The translations under genes were made by a program, and so were the position numbers. From NCBI GenBank assembly GCA_034430695.1, contig DAOUEE010000200.1, forward strand, positions 19,834 to 83,833: a DNA stretch of 64,000 bases, given 5' to 3'. The DNA comes from Anaerolineales bacterium (lineage in GTDB: Bacteria; Chloroflexota; Anaerolineae; Anaerolineales; E44-bin32). Each line of letters starts with the position of its first letter. The stretch's first letter is position 1. Below the pieces are notes generated by a model. That model saw only the letters and a list, made by a program, of their open reading frames with translations, had not been told where the DNA came from and searched no databases. Below, in pieces: positions 42,943 through 50,895 of this stretch.

Positions 42943-43305
42943 ATGGAATTACCCGTCGTTAATCCGTCTGAAGAAGCTCTCCCGCCCGAAGAAGTTCGTA
43001 TTCGGACGGTGTCATTCGCCGTTCAAGCGGATCGTCGTCGAGTAAGAATCTCGATGGAGTTGACACCATTTCAAAGTCCACCGGATGTAGCTGTGGTAAT
43101 CACGGATGATGATGGTGTTGAGTTGGTCAGCACGAATATTATCGGCGCGACGAACAGCAGATTGGCGTTTACGATGCATCTTCCCGAATTGGAGCCTTCC
43201 GGCCAGTGTCTCTTCCGTGCTGCCGTGGAGTATCAGGAGCAGGGGAAGGTAGACGAAGTAGTGAAGGCGTTTTCACCAGTCAATACTTCGTCGGAAGCAG
43301 ATTGA
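42943..43305 (+). CDS. hypothetical 120-aa protein, predicted beta-rich, co-transcribed with the STAND regulator
   Basis: ORF with no homology I recognise. Preceded by TATAAT 42914-42919. Its stop lies 8 nt before the regulator ATG, and the regulator SD (GAGGGGA) sits inside its 3' end. Confidence 0.55.
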   Translation: MELPVVNPSEEALPPEEVRIRTVSFAVQADRRRVRISMELTPFQSPPDVAVVITDDDGVELVSTNIIGATNSRLAFTMHLPELEPSGQCLFRAAVEYQEQGKVDEVVKAFSPVNTSSEAD

Positions 43306-43313
43306 GGGGACGG

Positions 43314-46300
43314 ATGGCGAAATTCAATTCCGTTCTACGGCACGCAATCACACCACTGAGTTTCGATGTCGAAACCAAGGTGCATCGAGAACACCTGGTC
43401 GATGAAATCCACGCGAACATTCCCCGAAAACTCATCATCGTTGCCGCCCCGGCAGGATATGGGAAAACGACGCTCCTGGCCGATTTTACGAAACACACAG
43501 AATTGCCGGTTTGTTGGGCGCGGCTGTCTGCGGTAGATCAAGACCTGTTCCATTTTGCCATGGTGCTTTCCAGCTCGCTGCAACGACGTTTCCGGCGTCT
43601 GCAGGGGATTTTTGATTTCGATTCGCTTTCCGATTACTCGCCTGAAGCCCTTGCACGCATGTTTGCCGAGGTGATCGATGCCAAAATTAACGAGACTTTC
43701 GTCATCGCTCTGGACGACGTGCACTGGATCAACAAATCCAAGCCGATCTTGAATTTCCTGGACCAGTTCTTGGAGGAACAACCCGAACAGGCCACGCTCA
43801 TCGCTACGGGGCGAGAAGTTCTGGAGGTTTCTCTGGCAAAGTTCATGGCGGAGGGGAACTTGGTCGGCTTCGGTCCGCAAGATCTGGCCTTGTCGAGAGA
43901 AGAAATTATTCAACTTGCACGCGTTCATTCCAACCTGGAAATCGGTGTGGATGCCGCGGAGCGATTGCAGCATGATACTCGTGGCTGGATCACGGGTGTG
44001 ATCCTCTCGGCGGAACTCTCGGGCCGGGGATTGAATGCGCTGAAGATGAGTTCACGGCCGATGGTTTACGAGTACCTCGCTTCGGTCGTACTGAATCGCC
44101 AACCGGATGATCTGCGCCGTTTCGTGTTGGACACCTCCGTGTTTCCGGTTATGACGGTGGAGGGCTGCAATTACTTGCTGCGGCGTGACGATAGTTCCAG
44201 TATGCTCGCCCGCATCGTCGACCGGGGATTGTTCGTCACGGCGACCGATGAAGGCCCCAGAACATACGAATACCACCCTCAATTCCGTGAATTTCTATTG
44301 GAAACTCTCCAGGGTGGAGATGCGCAGCGATACAAGGGCTTGCTGAACCGTGCGGCGAGATATCTGGCCGATCACGATTCGCCCGAGTATGCCGTCGAGC
44401 TTTTCTGCGATGCCGGGGAAGGAAAACGTGCTGTCGAGCTGGCCGAAGGACGGGCCCGTGAGATGTTTGTCAGCGGGCGTTGGCAAACACTCGAGTTGTG
44501 GGCGCGACGACTCGAAGAGATCGAATCTCCCGCGCCACGCGTGTTGCTTTACCTCGCGGCGAAATATACCCAGCAAGGAAGGCTGGAGGAAGCGGAGAAA
44601 AATCTCGATCAAGCGAAAACGATGCTGGATTTGGATTCGCCCAAAAATTTGCGAGCGTACTATGAAATTCTTCGCGGCCACGTGGCGCTTCGTCGCGGAT
44701 CCTATGAGGCTGTGATCGAGGTTATTGCTCGTGCGGAGGAAATTTTAAAACCGTCCGGCAAGCGCCTGCAAAAAGCAGAATGCTACCGACTGCGTGCGCT
44801 CGCATCTTCGTTGAAGGGAGATTTACTGACGGCCGAATCCTACTGTGCGAAGGCCGTTGCTTTATATCAAAAGACGGACGAAAAATTAGATTTGGCTTAT
44901 GGTTTGATCGATCAATCGACAATTCAGGTGGCTTTGGGAAAATCCTCGGAAGCGTACGCTACGACGAAGCAAGCCCATCAAATTCTGCTGCAAGGTGGAG
45001 CTCCCTTGCCGCTGGCGGTTTCATTCATGAATCTCGCACACGATGCGCATCAGCGCGGTGAGTATGAAGAGGCCATGGAGCTTTACAATGAAGGTCTCAA
45101 GTATACACGTCAAGCGGCCAGCCCTCCTCAAGAAGCCCTGATCCTCTTCGGGCAAGCGGATTTATTCAATGATCTTAACCTCGCCTTGCAGGCTGCAGAA
45201 CTGTACGGATTGGGTCTGGATATTGCCATTCGGTTGGATGATCTACAGCAAATACGTTACGGGTGCGTGCAGACGAGCGTCCTACACCGCAGGCGCGGGG
45301 GAGGCAGCCTGGCGCACGATTGGCTTCGGCGGGCGATCAAACTCGAAAAGACCAGTGATCTGACAACCGATATCTTGATTCAATTGGCGGCACTCGAATC
45401 GATGGCTAAACCCCAGCAGTCCATTATGAAGCTTAAATCCATCCTATTGAAGGAACACAATAGCGATGTCGGTATCACCACTTTAGGTCTCTACTTCCAA
45501 TCGCGGGCGGAGTTTGCGATCGGGGCTCGGGATGAAGCGCAAAATACTCTCGAACGTGCTCTCGGTTGGGCCAACACCAACGGAACCGAACAATTGCTCT
45601 CGGCTGAACTATCATTTGATGATTCCTTTCGAGAGTTTGCAAGGAATCGCCTCACTGGTCACCCTTCTCTTTCGATTGTTCTACGCAGAGTGGATACAAT
45701 GCGTGCAGTCGCGCAACATTACCGGGATATTGGCGAAGAAAAGGATCTTCGGGGCGTGCGACTCGTGTTCAAAGCGTTCGGGGAAGCCAATGTTCTCAAG
45801 AATGATTCCCAGATCACGGATCTGAAACCACTTGCACGAGAAGTGTTGTTCTATTTAATCGATCACCAGCACGTCGACCGGGATGTACTCCTGGAGACTT
45901 TCTGGCAACACCATCCTCCGGGCCGGCAGGTAGCGAATTTGCATACCGCTGTCTACAGCCTGCGTCGTGTACTGGGCCGTTCGACAATTCTACACGAGGG
46001 TTCGGTGTACTCGATCAATGTAGAAATCGCCATCGAATACGACGTGGCTCGATTTGAACGGGCTACATCGGTGGCTGAAAGCCTTCCGATTGGGGATCCT
46101 CGCCGCATGTTCGCTCTTACGGAAGCGATCAATTCATACACGGGATCGTTCTTATCCGAATTCGATTCAGATTGGGTGGTCGAACGGCGCCGGGATTTAG
46201 AACTTCAATATCTTGATTTGTTGGCCCAGCACGCCGAAGAGGCGTTGATCCGCGATCAGCCGTTAAGGGCTGTAAATACACTTCGTCAGGCTTTACAAAT

Positions 46301-46472
46301 CGATCCTCTTCGTGATGATACCAACTTCCACTTTTTAGAAGCGCTCGGGCGATTGGGCCGGCGAAGCGAGATCGTGGCTCACTATCAGAAGTATGTGAAC
46401 GGGCTCTCGACAGAATTGGGGTTGGATCCGCCGAAAACAGTCCGTGATCTTTACGCTCGTTTAATAAAGTGA
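43314..46472 (+). CDS. MalT-like STAND NTPase + TPR + C-terminal OmpR-type wHTH + BTAD (SARP-like) transcriptional regulator
   Basis: Walker A AAPAGYGKTTLL and Walker B FVIALDDVHW, with a MalT-like arm (TRGWITGV, YEYHPQFREFL). Long TPR-like middle. C-terminus (from about 45760) LAREVLFYLI...LLETFWQHHPPGRQVANLHTAVYSLRRVLG, then a BTAD helical domain ending LYARLIK. Start taken at ATG 43314. Confidence 0.85.
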   Translation: MAKFNSVLRHAITPLSFDVETKVHREHLVDEIHANIPRKLIIVAAPAGYGKTTLLADFTKHTELPVCWARLSAVDQDLFHFAMVLSSSLQRRFRRLQGIFDFDSLSDYSPEALARMFAEVIDAKINETFVIALDDVHWINKSKPILNFLDQFLEEQPEQATLIATGREVLEVSLAKFMAEGNLVGFGPQDLALSREEIIQLARVHSNLEIGVDAAERLQHDTRGWITGVILSAELSGRGLNALKMSSRPMVYEYLASVVLNRQPDDLRRFVLDTSVFPVMTVEGCNYLLRRDDSSSMLARIVDRGLFVTATDEGPRTYEYHPQFREFLLETLQGGDAQRYKGLLNRAARYLADHDSPEYAVELFCDAGEGKRAVELAEGRAREMFVSGRWQTLELWARRLEEIESPAPRVLLYLAAKYTQQGRLEEAEKNLDQAKTMLDLDSPKNLRAYYEILRGHVALRRGSYEAVIEVIARAEEILKPSGKRLQKAECYRLRALASSLKGDLLTAESYCAKAVALYQKTDEKLDLAYGLIDQSTIQVALGKSSEAYATTKQAHQILLQGGAPLPLAVSFMNLAHDAHQRGEYEEAMELYNEGLKYTRQAASPPQEALILFGQADLFNDLNLALQAAELYGLGLDIAIRLDDLQQIRYGCVQTSVLHRRRGGGSLAHDWLRRAIKLEKTSDLTTDILIQLAALESMAKPQQSIMKLKSILLKEHNSDVGITTLGLYFQSRAEFAIGARDEAQNTLERALGWANTNGTEQLLSAELSFDDSFREFARNRLTGHPSLSIVLRRVDTMRAVAQHYRDIGEEKDLRGVRLVFKAFGEANVLKNDSQITDLKPLAREVLFYLIDHQHVDRDVLLETFWQHHPPGRQVANLHTAVYSLRRVLGRSTILHEGSVYSINVEIAIEYDVARFERATSVAESLPIGDPRRMFALTEAINSYTGSFLSEFDSDWVVERRRDLELQYLDLLAQHAEEALIRDQPLRAVNTLRQALQIDPLRDDTNFHFLEALGRLGRRSEIVAHYQKYVNGLSTELGLDPPKTVRDLYARLIK

Positions 46473-46677
46473 ATCACACACTCTAAAATCGGACTTTCGG
46501 CATAATCTGGAGAACTCACTTCGATTGATGGCCATGCGTTTGGAATCGAACTGCGTTCTCCCCACGATTGCTGTACACTACACCTCATAACCATCTCCAC
46601 GCATCCATTCATCACCGCTCCAATACAACCCTGATACGGCCTGATAAGTGTGGACCATCCAACGTATGCCGATTGTC

Positions 46678-46710
46678 GTTGAGAATCTGTTGAGACCTTT
46701 ATTGTAGAGT
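46678..46710 (+). promoter_or_regulatory. candidate SARP-box promoter: two exact heptamer direct repeats at 11-bp spacing plus a -10-like hexamer
   Basis: GTTGAGA (46678-46684), atct, GTTGAGA (46689-46695), 9 nt, then TAGAGT (46705-46710). It lies 28 nt upstream of the micropeptide SD. Confidence 0.4.
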
Positions 46711-46749
46711 AATTAACAGAGAGAGAACACATTCAATAAGGAGGTTGCC

Positions 46750-46800
46750 ATGCCGAATGTGCGCTGCGTTCGCGGTGGTGGTCTTATTGGCGGGGGCTAG
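46750..46800 (+). CDS. candidate 16-aa Gly-rich micropeptide or leader peptide (MPNVRCVRGGGLIGGG)
   Basis: Perfect AAGGAGG (46738-46744), 5 nt, ATG, then 16 codons ending in TAG. Followed by a palindrome and a terminator. Confidence 0.35.
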   Translation: MPNVRCVRGGGLIGGG

Positions 46801-46843
46801 ATCCTTAGCCGTTAATAATTGAATTAACACCAATAAAACGCCT

Positions 46844-46880
46844 GGCAGCGAGGCGACTTGACTTGCTGCCTTTTTATTTC
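46844..46880 (+). terminator. intrinsic terminator or attenuator after the micropeptide ORF
   Basis: GGCAGCGAG / CTTGCTGCC, a 9-bp stem (one G-U pair) with a 9-nt loop, followed by TTTTTATTTC. Confidence 0.55.
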
Positions 46881-46919
46881 TGGACGTTTTCAACTTTACT
46901 AAACTCAGGAGGTTTTAAG

Positions 46920-47210
46920 ATGAGTATGCAGAGTCTGAATCAACTTGTGGCGCGTTCGATTATCGATCCCGGGATCGTGCAGGCTTTCAGTTCCGGAAAC
47001 AGGTCTGCAATCCTCAGCGAAATGGAGTTTTCGCCCGAGCTTCGGTCGGATCTCAACTGCATTGAAGCGAGTTCGTTTGTGGAATTCGCGATCAAAGCCT
47101 ACCGTGTGGTAAAAGCTTCGGAAGTAAAGCCGCTGCAAATCGAACTTCCCTCTCCGATTGCGGGTTTGGTGCCGGATCAAGATTGTGCTGAGGGTGAACA
47201 AGCTGCATGA
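46920..47210 (+). CDS. 96-aa helical protein with faint LigA / NHLP-leader-like resemblance
   Basis: AGGAGG (46907-46912), 7 nt, then ATG. SLNQLVARSIIDPGIVQAFSSGN...FSPELRSDLNCIEASSFVEFA resembles LigA-subunit/NHLP-clan small proteins. This is from memory, not a search. Confidence 0.55.
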   Translation: MSMQSLNQLVARSIIDPGIVQAFSSGNRSAILSEMEFSPELRSDLNCIEASSFVEFAIKAYRVVKASEVKPLQIELPSPIAGLVPDQDCAEGEQAA

Positions 47211-47707
47211 TCACATGCACGAAGAAGGAGCGGGAGTGGTTCTTGCAGAACATCGCACAGGGACTTGTGGATTATCTCGGTGTGATGGAGCCTCCTGTGC
47301 CGATCGAGAAACTGCTTAGAAATCCCCCGGCGATATACGATGCGGACTTCGGCGTCGTAGAAATGAATTCCGAGCTGTGGGATGCGACGTTCGCGCGGCT
47401 GCCCGATCAGAGTGGTAAAATTTTCGTCCACTCGGATCTCGGACCAGAAGCGCGTCGATATGCATTGGCGCGTGAAACGCTGAGCGCCTTGATCACGAGC
47501 AAGCACGGTCAAAATCTGGGTCTTTTCGAATTGGTCGAATCGCACTTGAGAGAATCTGCGGAATTTTTTGCCCGAATACTTCTAGCCCCTCCGCGCTTAC
47601 TGCGCTGCTTTTGTTCAGGGGATGGAGCGGTAACGAGGATCGTGAAAGAATTTAAGCTCCCGATGCACGCGGCATCGAAACTTTGTGAAGATATGAGCAC
47701 TGCGTAA
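47207..47707 (+). CDS. ImmA/IrrE (M78, COG2856)-like protein lacking the HExxH zinc site
   Basis: ATGA overlap with the upstream gene. IFVHSDLGPEARRYALARETLSAL...ESAEFFARILLAPPRLL parallels the family pattern I.in..l....RRFTLAHELGHal...E.EAN.FAa.LLmP..ll. H-E-x-x-H is replaced by R-E-T-L-S. Confidence 0.6.
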   Translation: MITCTKKEREWFLQNIAQGLVDYLGVMEPPVPIEKLLRNPPAIYDADFGVVEMNSELWDATFARLPDQSGKIFVHSDLGPEARRYALARETLSALITSKHGQNLGLFELVESHLRESAEFFARILLAPPRLLRCFCSGDGAVTRIVKEFKLPMHAASKLCEDMSTA

Positions 47708-47736
47708 TGCAACAGGAGTTGTTTGTTTGACGGATG

Positions 47737-47768
47737 AGCCGGCCTCGGGGCCGGTTCTTTTTCTTTCC
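47737..47768 (+). terminator. intrinsic terminator ending the small-gene cassette
   Basis: AGCCGGCC-tcgg-GGCCGGTT stem followed by TTCTTTTTCTTT. Confidence 0.65.
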
Positions 47769-47887
47769 AACGGATTAGCGACGACCACACCCTCATAACT
47801 TACTCCCCTTTCATTTGGCACCTACCTTGCACGAAATGGCGTGAAAGCAGAAGGCAGGTATAATCGCGTGCTTGAGGATGAGGACCG

Positions 47888-49810
47888 TTGACGGAAAAGC
47901 AGGCATCTCTGACAGACACATCACCCGGGGCACGAAGGACATCTAGGAAGCCCTGGATTTTTCGATCCTTTCTTTTTATCTCGCTGCTCGCAGTTGTTGG
48001 GATCGGATGGATAAGTATTGGGGTTCAGAATCGATTGCGCGACTCGGATCTGGATCCGACATTGATCTCGCTGGCCACTTCGTTGGCATATACCGCCACA
48101 CCAAGTCCATCGCCCACGGTTTCTCCTGCCTTGCCAACCAACACTCCAGCACCCACAAGAATTACCTCGTGGGGAACGATCATTTTTTCGGCAAGAGGGA
48201 ATGGGTACACACACTTGTGGGCCTATGTGCCCGGGGATTCGAACTCGGTCCAACTGACGGGAGGCCCGTGGGACGATCGCGATCCCGCGGTGAGTCCCGA
48301 TGGGTTTTCGGTTGCCTTCACCTCGAGGCGGAATGGATACTGGGATTTATATATCCTCGATCTGCAGTCGGGCGACATCCGGCGGCTTTCCAATACCCCT
48401 GGCTACGAAGGCAATCCGACGTGGTCTCCGGACGGGCACTGGTTGGCGTTCGAGGCCTACTACAATGACAATTTCGACATCTGGATCGTTCCTGTCGATC
48501 TGGGACAAGATCCGATCCAGCTCACGATTCATCCGGGTGCGGATCTTAGTCCGAGTTGGGATCCCCAAGGCCGCAGGATAGCTTTTGTCTCCGATCGAGA
48601 CGACTCCCCCGACATCTTTCTGGCAAATCTCGATGAACCGGATGATCGTTTTCTCAACATCACCAACACCAAATCGACCGTCGAGAGCATGCCGGTTTTC
48701 AGTGATGACGGTTCGTCATTGGCCTACAGCGAATCCTCCTCGGGTATCGATGTCGTCAAGGTGTTCGATTTGAATGACATCAACCACCCGCCATACGAAG
48801 TCGGGCAGGGCCGGCACGCTGCCTGGTCTCCAGATGGCCGTTACATGGTCACTATATTGCGTACGGCGCTGTACCGGCGATTTCAAGTTTTCGCTCTGGA
48901 TCACGTTGAGGCAGCGGATTTGCCGGTTTTACCGTGGATCGATGTCGACGACGTTACCTGGACGGCGGCCGGAATGCCGGGAGAGATTTCCGCTGTCGAT
49001 CGCTTGCCGCCCACCGATGCGCCGCTGTTGAATGATGCGGCTAACGAATCACAGGATGCGAATGAATTGATGGATCTCGTCGATCTACCCGGGGTTCGCG
49101 CCCCGCATCCTTCTTTGTCAGACGCCGTCGACCAGGATTTTCTTGCGCTCAAAAAACACAGTATTTCGATCCTGGGATGGGATTTTTTGGAGAGTCTCGA
49201 TAATGCCTTTGTTGGATTGAACGATCCGTTGCCGCCCGGATTTGCCTACAACGATTGGCTTTACACCGGCCGGGCGTTCGCTTTCAACAGCGCGGCGATA
49301 CAGGCTGGATGGGTGGAATTCGTACGCGAGGATTTTGGCGGTCAAACCTACTGGCGGGTGTACGTCCTCGCGGCTCTCCAGGACGGTACTTTGGGCGAAC
49401 CCTTGCGTGAACTGCCGTGGGATTTCGACACACGGATTAACGGCGATCCGAAGACGTACGACCAGGGCGGATCCCTGCGAGAGTCCATTCCCTCGGGCTA
49501 CTACATCGATTTTACGCAGCTGGCCTCCGATTATGGTTTTGAACGACTTCCTGCGCTTTCCAACTGGCGGACGTTTTACCACGGAACGCGTCTCAACGAA
49601 TTCGTCAAACGAGAAGGCCTGAGTTGGACGGAAGCGATGCTGGAATTGTATCCCGCCTCAGCTCTGGTGACTCCTACACCGTTCCAAACTCCGACGAACA
49701 CGCCAACCCGAACGCCGAGGCCGACGGCGACTTCTTGGTGGTGGAAATGGCGGACTCCCTCGGCGACGCCAACGCAGCAGCCGATTTTCACCCCAACTGT
49801 GACACCATGA
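47888..49810 (+). CDS. membrane-anchored TolB-like beta-propeller (PD40 repeats) protein with an uncharacterised C-terminal domain and a Pro/Thr-rich tail
   Basis: N-terminal TM helix. Repeated D..P.(W/V)SPDG...(A/V)F.S pattern (PAVSPDGFSVAFTS, PTWSPDGHWLAFEA, PSWDPQGRRIAFVS, AAWSPDGRYMV). TTG start is uncertain. Confidence 0.8.
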   Translation: MTEKQASLTDTSPGARRTSRKPWIFRSFLFISLLAVVGIGWISIGVQNRLRDSDLDPTLISLATSLAYTATPSPSPTVSPALPTNTPAPTRITSWGTIIFSARGNGYTHLWAYVPGDSNSVQLTGGPWDDRDPAVSPDGFSVAFTSRRNGYWDLYILDLQSGDIRRLSNTPGYEGNPTWSPDGHWLAFEAYYNDNFDIWIVPVDLGQDPIQLTIHPGADLSPSWDPQGRRIAFVSDRDDSPDIFLANLDEPDDRFLNITNTKSTVESMPVFSDDGSSLAYSESSSGIDVVKVFDLNDINHPPYEVGQGRHAAWSPDGRYMVTILRTALYRRFQVFALDHVEAADLPVLPWIDVDDVTWTAAGMPGEISAVDRLPPTDAPLLNDAANESQDANELMDLVDLPGVRAPHPSLSDAVDQDFLALKKHSISILGWDFLESLDNAFVGLNDPLPPGFAYNDWLYTGRAFAFNSAAIQAGWVEFVREDFGGQTYWRVYVLAALQDGTLGEPLRELPWDFDTRINGDPKTYDQGGSLRESIPSGYYIDFTQLASDYGFERLPALSNWRTFYHGTRLNEFVKREGLSWTEAMLELYPASALVTPTPFQTPTNTPTRTPRPTATSWWWKWRTPSATPTQQPIFTPTVTP

Positions 49811-50895
49811 AACGCTCCGGTTTCCTCCTGCTCGCGATCGCGTTGACGTCACTCATGCTCTTCGCCTGTGGAGAGGGGAAAAGCGGTCGTATGCCCCAAC
49901 CAACCGTGACAGATGGTGTCCAATTAGCGCCGTCTGCAACGACGACTCTATCGGCCGGTAAGGATGTGTCGAATCCCATGCTGGGCGACCCGGCCAAAAC
50001 TCCGCTGCCCGTCGCATTTCCTACCGTCGAGCCGAGTGAAGAACTGGATTGGAGACCACCACCGTACCCCGCGCCTTGGGCTCTGCGTCCAGAAGACCAT
50101 TACTACTTCTGGCGACCCATTCCTTCGGGGCAGGTAAATTGGCCCCATCCCTTCTATCGTTATGGAAGCTCATATTTTGGTGAGTCGGACATCCATACCG
50201 GTGTGGATTTAGGCGCCGATCGCGGGGCGCCCGTGCTGGCCGCCGGTCCGGGTGAGGTGGTGTGGGCTGGCTACGGATTGTATCGGGGCATCGAAGATCC
50301 CACCGATCCGTATGGTCTCGCAGTGGCCATTCGACACGATTTTGGCTATCAGGGGCAGGCACTTTATACGATTTATGCTCATATGCAAGAGGTCTTCGTT
50401 TGGGACGGCCAGCACGTGGAGGCCGGCGAGCAGCTTGGTACGGTGGGAACCACGGGTCACTCCGATGGCCCTCACCTGCACTTCGAAGTGCGGTTGGGGG
50501 AAAATCGCTTCTTCAGTACGAGGAATCCAGAATTGTGGATGGTGCCGCCGGAGGGGTGGGCCGTGTTGGCTGGGCGAATTACGGACACGTACGGCAATCT
50601 TCTGCCCGAATTTCCGTTGAAAATCCGATCGCTGGAGACCGGGAAGAAATGGGAAGTCTGGACTTACGTTCTCACGACGATTCACCCCGATGATTACTAC
50701 AACGAGAACTTCGTGATCAGTGATTTGCCGGCGGGGCCGTACGAGATCACGATCGATTTCGTGGGTTTTCAATACGTCGCATATTTGACCCTCTACGCGG
50801 GAGAAACCAATTTCATCCTCTTTCGCGGCCGCAACGGTTTTGTCGTTCATCCTACGCCGACGCCCGTCGATCTGTCCAGTCCTCCCGATCTATGA
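49807..50895 (+). CDS. M23 family metalloendopeptidase lipoprotein
   Basis: Lipobox LMLFAC. HTGVDLGA...GHSDGPHLHFEV LytM-type motifs. ATGA overlap with the upstream gene. The ORF-track start at 49624 is rejected. Confidence 0.88.
   Translation: MKRSGFLLLAIALTSLMLFACGEGKSGRMPQPTVTDGVQLAPSATTTLSAGKDVSNPMLGDPAKTPLPVAFPTVEPSEELDWRPPPYPAPWALRPEDHYYFWRPIPSGQVNWPHPFYRYGSSYFGESDIHTGVDLGADRGAPVLAAGPGEVVWAGYGLYRGIEDPTDPYGLAVAIRHDFGYQGQALYTIYAHMQEVFVWDGQHVEAGEQLGTVGTTGHSDGPHLHFEVRLGENRFFSTRNPELWMVPPEGWAVLAGRITDTYGNLLPEFPLKIRSLETGKKWEVWTYVLTTIHPDDYYNENFVISDLPAGPYEITIDFVGFQYVAYLTLYAGETNFILFRGRNGFVVHPTPTPVDLSSPPDL

Follow-up and report, generated by a model that had tools for sequence, protein, structure and literature searches.

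A Conserved Micro-Gene in Front of a Terminator-Like Hairpin in an Anaerolineales Operon

Introduction

A 16-codon open reading frame (ORF) in a 64,000-nucleotide (nt) stretch of the genome of an Anaerolineales bacterium (Chloroflexota; GenBank assembly GCA_034430695.1, contig DAOUEE010000200.1, positions 19,834 to 83,833 of the forward strand; the whole stretch is hereafter called the window) is, to judge from its coding signature, a genuine translated micro-gene with its amino acid sequence under selection. This small ORF (sORF) lies on the + strand, as do all features described below unless stated otherwise, in a gap of 447 nt (46473-46919) between an upstream ORF of 1088 (or 1052) amino acids (aa), which encodes a large regulator, and a downstream ORF of 96 aa. 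Conserved with it, as computed over related loci, are a hairpin followed by a T-run, the architecture of a predicted promoter, and the order of the flanking genes. Our favored reading, to which we assign as a whole a probability of about one half, is that the peptide is the product that matters, that a terminator behind the sORF would maintain a high ratio of sORF mRNA to operon mRNA, and that ribosome loading would favor termination in many lineages. The original prediction for this gap had described a Shine-Dalgarno (SD) sequence, the ORF, a CGCTGC hexamer, a palindrome, a hairpin, and the SD of the next gene, all of which were found where it had placed them.

Conservation and Coding Signature of the Small ORF

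The SD sequence AAGGAGGT (46738-46745) comprises 8 nt complementary to the anti-SD; its AAGGAGG core (46738-46744) ends five bases 5′ of the ATG at 46750, and it is followed by the conserved spacer TGCC. The sORF (46750-46800) consists of 16 codons and the stop codon TAG (46798-46800) and encodes the peptide MPNVRCVRGGGLIGGG. Six of the codons specify Gly (three GGT, then GGC, GGG, and GGC), which corrects the original count of seven. From the window alone, an SD with a tiny ORF is no more than chance would supply: approximately 12 AGGAGG-plus-start sites occur in the window, and three others also precede very short ORFs (5-23 codons), two of which (2976 and 30392) were examined and lie inside long ORFs. 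The reality of the sORF is settled by comparison.

A locus scan based on the 96-aa protein, with one genome per species, returned 53 loci (48-90% identity), and approximately 70 syntenic Anaerolineales loci were compared. Public samples such as JGI 3300031359, 3300031255, and 3300031698 and SRR9710561 contain the exact locus of the window. An SD-led ORF of 6-24 codons is present at the same place in all 49 genome loci with enough upstream sequence and in 23 metagenome contigs; the original prediction had named the absence of a homologous small ORF from syntenic loci as fatal to it. Nearly all loci contain the string AAGGAGGTTGCC-ATG or a closely similar one, and the exact 15-mer occurs once in the window. 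The metagenome contigs were obtained by scanning for an SD and ATG followed by GGCAGCGAGG, a segment of the hairpin described below; the scan yielded the 23 further sORF-bearing contigs, all in the same operon context, and 10 chance matches at ordinary gene starts.

The substitution pattern is that of a coding sequence. Within clades, 39 synonymous and 21 non-synonymous substitutions were counted in the sORF, against a random single-base expectation of 27% synonymous (p = 7e-10), so that in the proposed check of peptide against nucleotide conservation the peptide side prevails. The variable sites are distributed 17/14/43 over the three codon positions, the third position accounting for 43 of 74. 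In the clade with the peptide MVSTRCPRDGALID, nine synonymous changes stand against three non-synonymous ones, and the peptide is identical in four of the five members. Codon families are switched as well, Leu being encoded by CTN and TTR and Ser by AGC and TCN, and the second Arg of the peptide, which follows the Pro, is spelled AGG, AGA, CGG, CGT, CGC, or CGA across loci. Peptides from relatives include MVSTRCPRDGALID, MTKARCPRDGGLSGG, MARCPMVGGGGT, MTGVRCVVPAGGPGGGH, and MAGRKPDGGVGPA. Most clades share the core R-C-P-[RK]-D-G-G, and the deepest shared motif, [RK]-D-G-G, is kept in the deepest branches amid unrelated nucleotide contexts (MAGRKPDGGVGPA, MVALKGDGGVGGM, MTSIRLSRDGGGRG). Furthermore, the peptide module is duplicated in tandem in three loci (L024, 2361-2435; L039, 2716-2790; L035, 2794-2853), giving, e.g., RCPKDGGGSC-RTPKDGGGSC and RCPKDGGG-RKPKDGGG, the copies of which differ mostly at synonymous sites. 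A synonymously diverged module duplication is not predicted by a role of the RNA only or of ribosome occupancy.

These data already refute the explanation that the ORF arose by chance and that the hairpin is an ordinary terminator belonging to the upstream regulator gene. The other AGGAGG-led short ORFs of the window would speak for it, whereas the sORF is conserved in 49 of 49 loci and has a coding signature, and the hairpin is separated from the end of the regulator gene by 370 nt that include a conserved promoter. An antisense ORF of 64 aa on the minus strand (46699-46893) was also considered and rejected; it is not conserved, and its matches in relatives are scattered over different frames.

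Gene callers overlook genes as short as 6-24 codons, and none of the public annotations of these contigs lists the sORF. A literature search for the peptide motif returned no match, and a second copy of the motif or module was found neither in the window nor in the other loci.

The 96-aa protein has 83 homologue clusters, in which every name given by the source is Anaerolineales or other Chloroflexota. Essentially all loci share one gene order, namely the regulator of the STAND type, the intergenic gap, the genes for the 96-aa and 166-aa proteins, and those for a TolB-like β-propeller protein and an M23 peptidase; wherever the sequence extends far enough, the regulator gene is the immediate upstream neighbor. 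As a single-copy, strictly syntenic locus whose divergence parallels that of its neighbors across an order, it shows a pattern typical of a housekeeping or regulatory locus and not of a patchy biosynthetic cluster. One locus, L033 (JAIWHF010000014.1), is labeled as a Methanosarcinales archaeon metagenome-assembled genome and carries the complete Anaerolineales-type arrangement of sORF, 96-aa, 166-aa, and TolB-like genes; this archaeal label is most likely a binning error.

Terminator-Like Hairpin Behind the Small ORF

The element that resembles an intrinsic terminator spans 46844-46879 and is composed of a stem-loop (46844-46870), in which GGCAGCGAG pairs over 9 base pairs (bp) with CTTGCTGCC across a 9-nt loop (-15.2 kcal/mol), and the T-run TTTTTATTT (46871-46879). 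A generic terminator scan missed this hairpin because its loop limit was 8 nt. Of 46 loci, 44 have a hairpin with a T-rich tail, at -10 to -23 kcal/mol with one weak call of -4.4, and the 9 nt that follow the stem are 69% T, compared with 25% in the background. The original prediction had placed a terminator just before the next gene, and a terminator-like element, at which termination is predicted, is indeed conserved there. The hairpin starts 31-70 nt past the sORF stop codon in most loci and 100-154 nt past it in five (overall, 31-154 nt), and it ends 28-82 nt before the ATG of the 96-aa gene, which in the window lies 49 nt beyond the stem-loop. This spacing leaves no room for a downstream promoter, and the downstream genes therefore depend on read-through.

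The basal GGCAG/CTGCC pairs are conserved on both sides of the stem, the loop and the upper 3′ arm are variable, and the stem-loop measures 24-31 nt, which argues for an RNA hairpin and not for a DNA operator with fixed spacing. A palindromic DNA operator was rejected on these grounds, with a half-site distance that varies over 24-31 nt and a T-run behind it. A sigma-54 promoter reading of TGGCAG...TTGC was likewise rejected, because the T varies among the aligned hairpins and TTGC does not sit at the -12 spacing. The 5′ arm of the hairpin (46844-46853) reads GGCAGCGAGG and is nearly invariant across related loci, which is more conservation than a stem needs.

Between the sORF and the hairpin lies the palindrome GTTAAT-aattga-ATTAAC (46811-46828). 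It is present, as pointed out in the original prediction, and is not conserved; near-identical strains break it without compensation (GTTGAT in L005, GTTACT in L006, and a further break in L008). It was rejected as a functional element and is probably without function.

Pairing Between the Start of the Small ORF and the Hairpin

The Arg-Cys codons CGCTGC (46762-46767) are complementary to GCAGCG of the hairpin 5′ arm and constitute a candidate antiterminator strand. The codons that specify (Ala/Ser/Thr)-Arg-Cys-Pro, ..CUCGCUGCC, are complementary to GGCAGCGAG, and duplexes of -16 to -21 kcal/mol between the sORF start and the terminator were computed for many relatives. When transcripts were cut before the 3′ arm, the hairpin 5′ arm paired with positions +4..+20 in approximately 28 of 46 loci. 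In 17 of 46 loci, the minimum free energy (MFE) fold of the full leader lacks the terminator and contains instead pairing of the SD with the 3′ arm and of the early codons with the 5′ arm; L048 and L025 are examples of relatives with strong masking. In the window, the terminator stays in the MFE fold and is 6.4 kcal/mol more stable than the best fold in which the 3′ arm is unable to pair. The core 7 bp of the antiterminator pairing are possible in 27-32 of 33 loci; register pairing was obtained in 66% of cells, compared with 27-47% in slid registers. Where the peptide reads P-R-[LM]-S, pairing is kept in another register (CCUCG + UGUCG). The first Arg codon is nearly always CGC or CGT (CGY), both of which pair with the hairpin arm, and the second Arg is free. 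Measured against random genomic windows, the antiterminator duplex reaches the top 5% in 21 of 47 loci.

The weak antiterminator of the original prediction is thus fairly described for the window, where the duplex is at chance level, and understated for the relatives, in which it is strong in approximately 21 of 47 loci and in several registers; in the family, it is stronger and limited to certain clades. As the pairing is weak in the window, the terminator there is probably mainly a constitutive partial stop.

These pairings bear on the main rival explanation, on the unlikely side in our judgment, in which the sORF encodes a purely cis-acting leader peptide. The ribosome or the Pro/Asp/Gly-rich nascent chain would decide whether the terminator forms, in response to translational capacity or to a small molecule that acts on a stalled ribosome, and the released peptide would have no function. 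The layout of a short ORF, a terminator, and no downstream promoter is that of a classic attenuator; the early codons are complementary to the terminator 5′ arm in many loci, and the restriction of the first Arg codon to CGY is as expected for an RNA pairing constraint. Lineages in which the peptide motif has decayed (L019, L037, L031, L056) also retain the SD, a short ORF, and the hairpin. Conservation at the amino acid level is shared by arrest peptides such as SecM, TnaC, and ErmBL and is counted on the side of the leader. On the other side, no run of regulatory codons is common to all clades, and the operon is neither an amino acid nor a resistance operon. The residues nearest the peptidyl-transferase center are the least conserved, the conserved core being 5-10 residues from the stop codon, and this stop codon lies 31-154 nt from the hairpin, so that the hairpin is out of reach for a ribosome paused at the ORF end. 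The synonymously diverged tandem duplication has no role in such a model, and the antiterminator is at chance level in the window and absent in deep clades.

Classical ribosome-dependent attenuators share part of this layout. In trpL, pheL, hisL, and bmrB-bmrCD, a leader ORF of approximately 14-20 codons is likewise followed by a terminator and promoterless structural genes, and a segment of the leader ORF can pair with the terminator 5′ arm, as is predicted here for many relatives. They differ from the present locus in that the latter has no run of cognate amino acid codons, its peptide is under purifying selection over most of its length, its stop codon is far from the hairpin, and the alternative pairing is not universal in the family. 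Among the readings of the original prediction was a ribosome-sensing leader controlling read-through; its architecture holds, with a terminator-like hairpin and no room for a promoter. A glycine-sensing attenuator is unlikely and was rejected, because one whole clade, that of MVSTRCPRDGALID, has a single Gly.

The favored reading, with the peptide as the product, and the cis-acting leader can both be true. In S. meliloti, the trpL attenuator gives rise to a 14-aa peptide, peTrpL, and an RNA, rnTrpL, which act in trans (PMC7298713). An attenuator leader ORF that also yields a functional free peptide and a short RNA is the combined reading that would fit best here; the S. meliloti case differs in phylum and peptide, it concerns a trp operon via Trp codons, and no sequence relationship exists.

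Predicted Promoter and Adjoining Regulator

Alignment of the upstream regions on the sORF start disclosed a common promoter layout. Two direct heptamers, GTTGAGA-atct-GTTGAGA, with a period of 11 bp (46678-46695) form a predicted binding site for an activator of the SARP (Streptomyces antibiotic regulatory protein) type, and a -10-like hexamer, TAGAGT (TAnnnT; 46705-46710), begins 9 nt past the second heptamer. The purine-rich start of the leader, GAGAGAGAAC (46719-46728; family consensus GAG[A/T]GGRAA in the upstream-region alignment), is followed by the SD approximately 10-20 nt further 3′. A GTTGAGA-N4-GTTGAGA pair with no more than three mismatches is present in 42 of 46 loci and is the only such pair in the window. 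Between the end of the pair and the sORF ATG there are 40-59 nt (49-59 nt in all but one of the 42 loci), and the gap from the 3′ heptamer to TAnnnT is exactly 9 nt in 40 of 42. SARP activators bind directly repeated heptamers that recur every 11 bp and stand at a constant distance beside the -10 element (PMC10972967), and the promoter of the locus follows this rule, with heptamer repeats 11 bp apart and a fixed gap to the -10.

The product of the adjoining gene (43206-46472) is a regulator of the STAND class (large signal-sensing NTPases), in which a MalT-like NTPase and TPR repeats precede a C-terminal SARP module composed of a winged helix and the bacterial transcriptional activator domain (BTAD). 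In Pfam, AAA_22/AAA_16 cover residues 63-201, TPR and TPR_MalT 529-727, and BTAD 946-1086 (E 9e-20); in NCBIfam, MalT matches with E 4e-59, and residues 23-266 of AfsR are aligned to residues 847-1087. The longest ORF starts with GTG at 43206; since public gene calls give 1052 aa, with a start at ATG 43314, the latter is probably the true start. Most likely, this regulator switches on the operon promoter, to which it would bind through the heptamers.

In Streptomyces, AfsR activates the adjacent small gene afsS by binding two direct repeats in the afsS promoter (PMC10972967). The likeness to the present locus is that a large regulator with SARP, NTPase, and TPR parts adjoins a very small gene with two direct promoter repeats. 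The domain order here (NTPase, TPR, SARP) is the reverse of that in AfsR, and the repeat sequence differs; AfsS has 63 aa and no similarity to the present peptide, and afsS is not described as part of a terminator-coupled operon. Internal peptide repeats occur in AfsS, as in some variants of the sORF.

The position of the -10 hexamer predicts a transcription start at approximately 46717, and a transcript from there to 46879 would have approximately 163 nt, in agreement with the transcript of roughly 160 nt that the original prediction had put forward. Such a transcript could be an independent small regulatory RNA with an incidental or secondary ORF, base-pairing with other mRNAs as rnTrpL does, an explanation that we regard as highly improbable. 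The predicted promoter and terminator bound the transcript, the fold of 46700-46925 is somewhat more stable than that of shuffled sequences (z -2.1), two invariant RNA segments (GGCAGCGAGG and GAG[A/T]GGRAA) are not fully explained, and an attenuator with RNA and peptide both acting in trans has precedent (PMC7298713). On the other side, the substitution pattern is coding, no target can be named, and the SD, ORF, and terminator largely account for the conserved segments; the downstream genes, moreover, need read-through of the same transcript. Rfam, searched over 45500-48500, gave no match in 46473-46920 even at E 10.

Downstream Proteins

The second cistron (46920-47210) begins with the ATG at 46920, has an SD of its own, and encodes the 96-aa all-α protein of an uncharacterized family. 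This protein matches nothing in Pfam or NCBIfam, and its AlphaFold2 model (pLDDT 83), which comprises five helices, found no PDB fold match in a fold search. The start of the third cistron (47207-47707) overlaps the stop of the 96-aa gene (ATGA), and its 166-aa product has an ImmA/IrrE (Peptidase_M78) fold. In this family, 27 of 28 members match PF06114 with a best E of 1e-8, and the protein of the window itself does not reach E 1; the best Foldseek match of its model, which superposes on the corresponding domain, is the Mycobacterium tuberculosis regulator 6cz6/6cyj (probability 1.0, TM 0.58). The helix that would carry HExxH reads A-L-A-R-E-T-L-S-A-L, with the motif replaced by R-E-x-L-S. 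The invariant columns are L87, A88, R89, E90, L92, S93, and A94, of which R89, E90, and S93 are invariant in 28 sequences. The designation "ImmA-like" in the original prediction is therefore borne out for family and fold and fails for the catalytic motif; the protein is probably a non-catalytic scaffold and not a protease. Sequence searches with the profiles of the 96-aa and 166-aa families against PDB returned nothing, and the PADLOC defense models gave no match.

This gene content bears on the explanation that the sORF encodes the precursor of a secreted or modified peptide, resembling a ribosomally synthesized and post-translationally modified peptide (RiPP), a microcin, or a pheromone, with the terminator merely over-producing the precursor. 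We consider it improbable. A tiny gene with a very strong SD and a terminator before the other cistrons is the arrangement of mccA (PMC4231749) and of many lantibiotic operons; the peptide is rich in Gly with Cys or Ser, the duplicated GGGSC modules are reminiscent of multi-core precursors, and a TPR-containing regulator adjoins. Nevertheless, no modifying enzyme, recognition element, active protease, or exporter was found in or beside the operon with Pfam, NCBIfam, and PADLOC, the 96-aa protein has no match, and the M78 fold of the 166-aa protein lacks HExxH. The peptides of only 6-24 residues have no signal peptide and no division into leader and core, and the locus is single-copy and syntenic order-wide, unlike a patchy biosynthetic cluster. 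The hallmarks of MccA, a C-terminal Asn and an MccB-type enzyme, are missing; the final residue of the 48 genome-locus peptides is G, D, T, H, P, S, C, V, R, or Y in all but two, L043 and L051, which end in Asn. The secreted or modified micropeptide of the original prediction thus finds neither a signal peptide nor a modifying enzyme or transporter at the locus.

The operon is closed by a strong terminator (47736-47767), reported by the terminator scan as GAGCCGGCC-TCGG-GGCCGGTTC followed by TTTTTCTTTC. A weak Rfam match to sX14, a Xanthomonas small RNA, at 47674-47764 (19 bits, where the gathering score is 80) is accounted for by this operon-end hairpin alone. Further downstream, the longest ORFs of the TolB-like protein (47888-49810) and the M23 peptidase (49624-50895) overlap by approximately 190 nt, and the TTG listed as the start of the M23 ORF is probably too far upstream.

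Proposed Circuit and Points Against It

We propose a three-cistron operon of the sORF, the 96-aa helical protein, and the ImmA/IrrE-fold protein without catalytic HExxH. The sORF would be the first cistron and its peptide the selected product. An activator-dependent promoter, most likely activated by the neighboring STAND/SARP regulator, would drive the operon, and the terminator between the first and second cistrons would split the output into an abundant sORF mRNA of approximately 160 nt and a minor read-through mRNA, the latter being the only route of expression for both downstream genes. In many relatives, the SD and the first codons are complementary to both arms of the terminator, so that naked RNA would favor read-through, and a ribosome on the very strong SD would favor termination, as in mccA; in the window, the terminator would act for the most part irrespective of such loading. 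Dependence of termination on the ribosome is a prediction, and the peptide may act in trans on the co-transcribed proteins or the regulator.

The closest precedent is the microcin C operon of Escherichia coli, in which a terminator lies between the 7-codon mccA and mccB; experiments showed that the leader masks this terminator as long as the RNA is naked and that termination returns once a ribosome binds (Zukher et al., 2014; PMC4231749). The operon gives an abundant short mRNA and a minor polycistronic mRNA (PMC4231749). Both loci have a tiny first cistron, a very efficient SD, and an intrinsic terminator (here a predicted one) before the next cistron, and folding predicts masking of the terminator by the leader in 17 of 46 relatives of the present locus. 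The differences are equally clear. The present locus lacks an MccB-type adenylating enzyme and a C-terminal Asn, and its peptides have 6-24 residues, not 7; its downstream genes are not biosynthetic; and it is a chromosomal locus, syntenic order-wide, and not a mobile antibiotic cluster. Masking is weak in the window.

Several observations weigh against our reading. Covariation for the antiterminator was not above that of shuffles, a test that is uninformative because both strands are nearly invariant. Among random 36-nt genomic windows, 20% equal or surpass the window duplex (-12.3 kcal/mol), which is thus at chance level, and the complementarity between sORF and terminator is clade-specific and absent in deep clades. 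GGCAGCGAGG is near-invariant even where the sORF has no complementary segment and the upper 3′ arm does not pair with GAGG, and this invariance is not fully explained by the terminator stem alone. Many T-tracts are interrupted (CTTTAATTT, CTTTCGTTT), and the efficiency of the terminator is therefore uncertain. In a few lineages, the motif has decayed, yet the SD, a short ORF, and the hairpin are kept, the peptides being MPHVDD (L019, L037), MAKEPGPHRT (L056), and MPWDPVGGR (L031); such lineages are easier to reconcile with translation acting in cis than with a specific peptide acting in trans. Finally, we infer termination, the transcription start, and translation alike from patterns in the sequence.

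A more specific version of the trans-acting peptide can be formulated, which we rate as quite unlikely in this precise form. The peptide would be an intracellular signaling or cofactor micropeptide, made in excess from the short transcript, which binds either the TPR sensor of the regulator, so that auto-induction results, or the ImmA/IrrE-fold protein, itself catalytically dead, together with its 96-aa partner.

Perspective

The literature searched yielded no leader peptides, attenuators, or micropeptides for this lineage. The sORF element is new, having no Rfam family, literature match, or gene call; the architecture of a micro-ORF with an attenuating terminator and a SARP-type promoter is already known. 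What the comparison adds is clear purifying selection on a micro-gene across an order of uncultured Chloroflexota, together with a complete predicted circuit of activator, binding site, promoter, micro-gene, attenuating terminator, and two effector genes, all of which lends itself to reconstruction in a heterologous host. A trans-acting peptide would provide a handle on the 96-aa family without a fold match and on an ImmA/IrrE fold without a metal site. If the peptide is only a leader, ribosome-dependent attenuation would be extended to a new phylum, with an unusual Pro/Asp/Gly-rich sensor. Should the signaling micropeptide prove real, the locus would represent a peptide-gated regulatory module conserved across the Anaerolineales, without a described counterpart.

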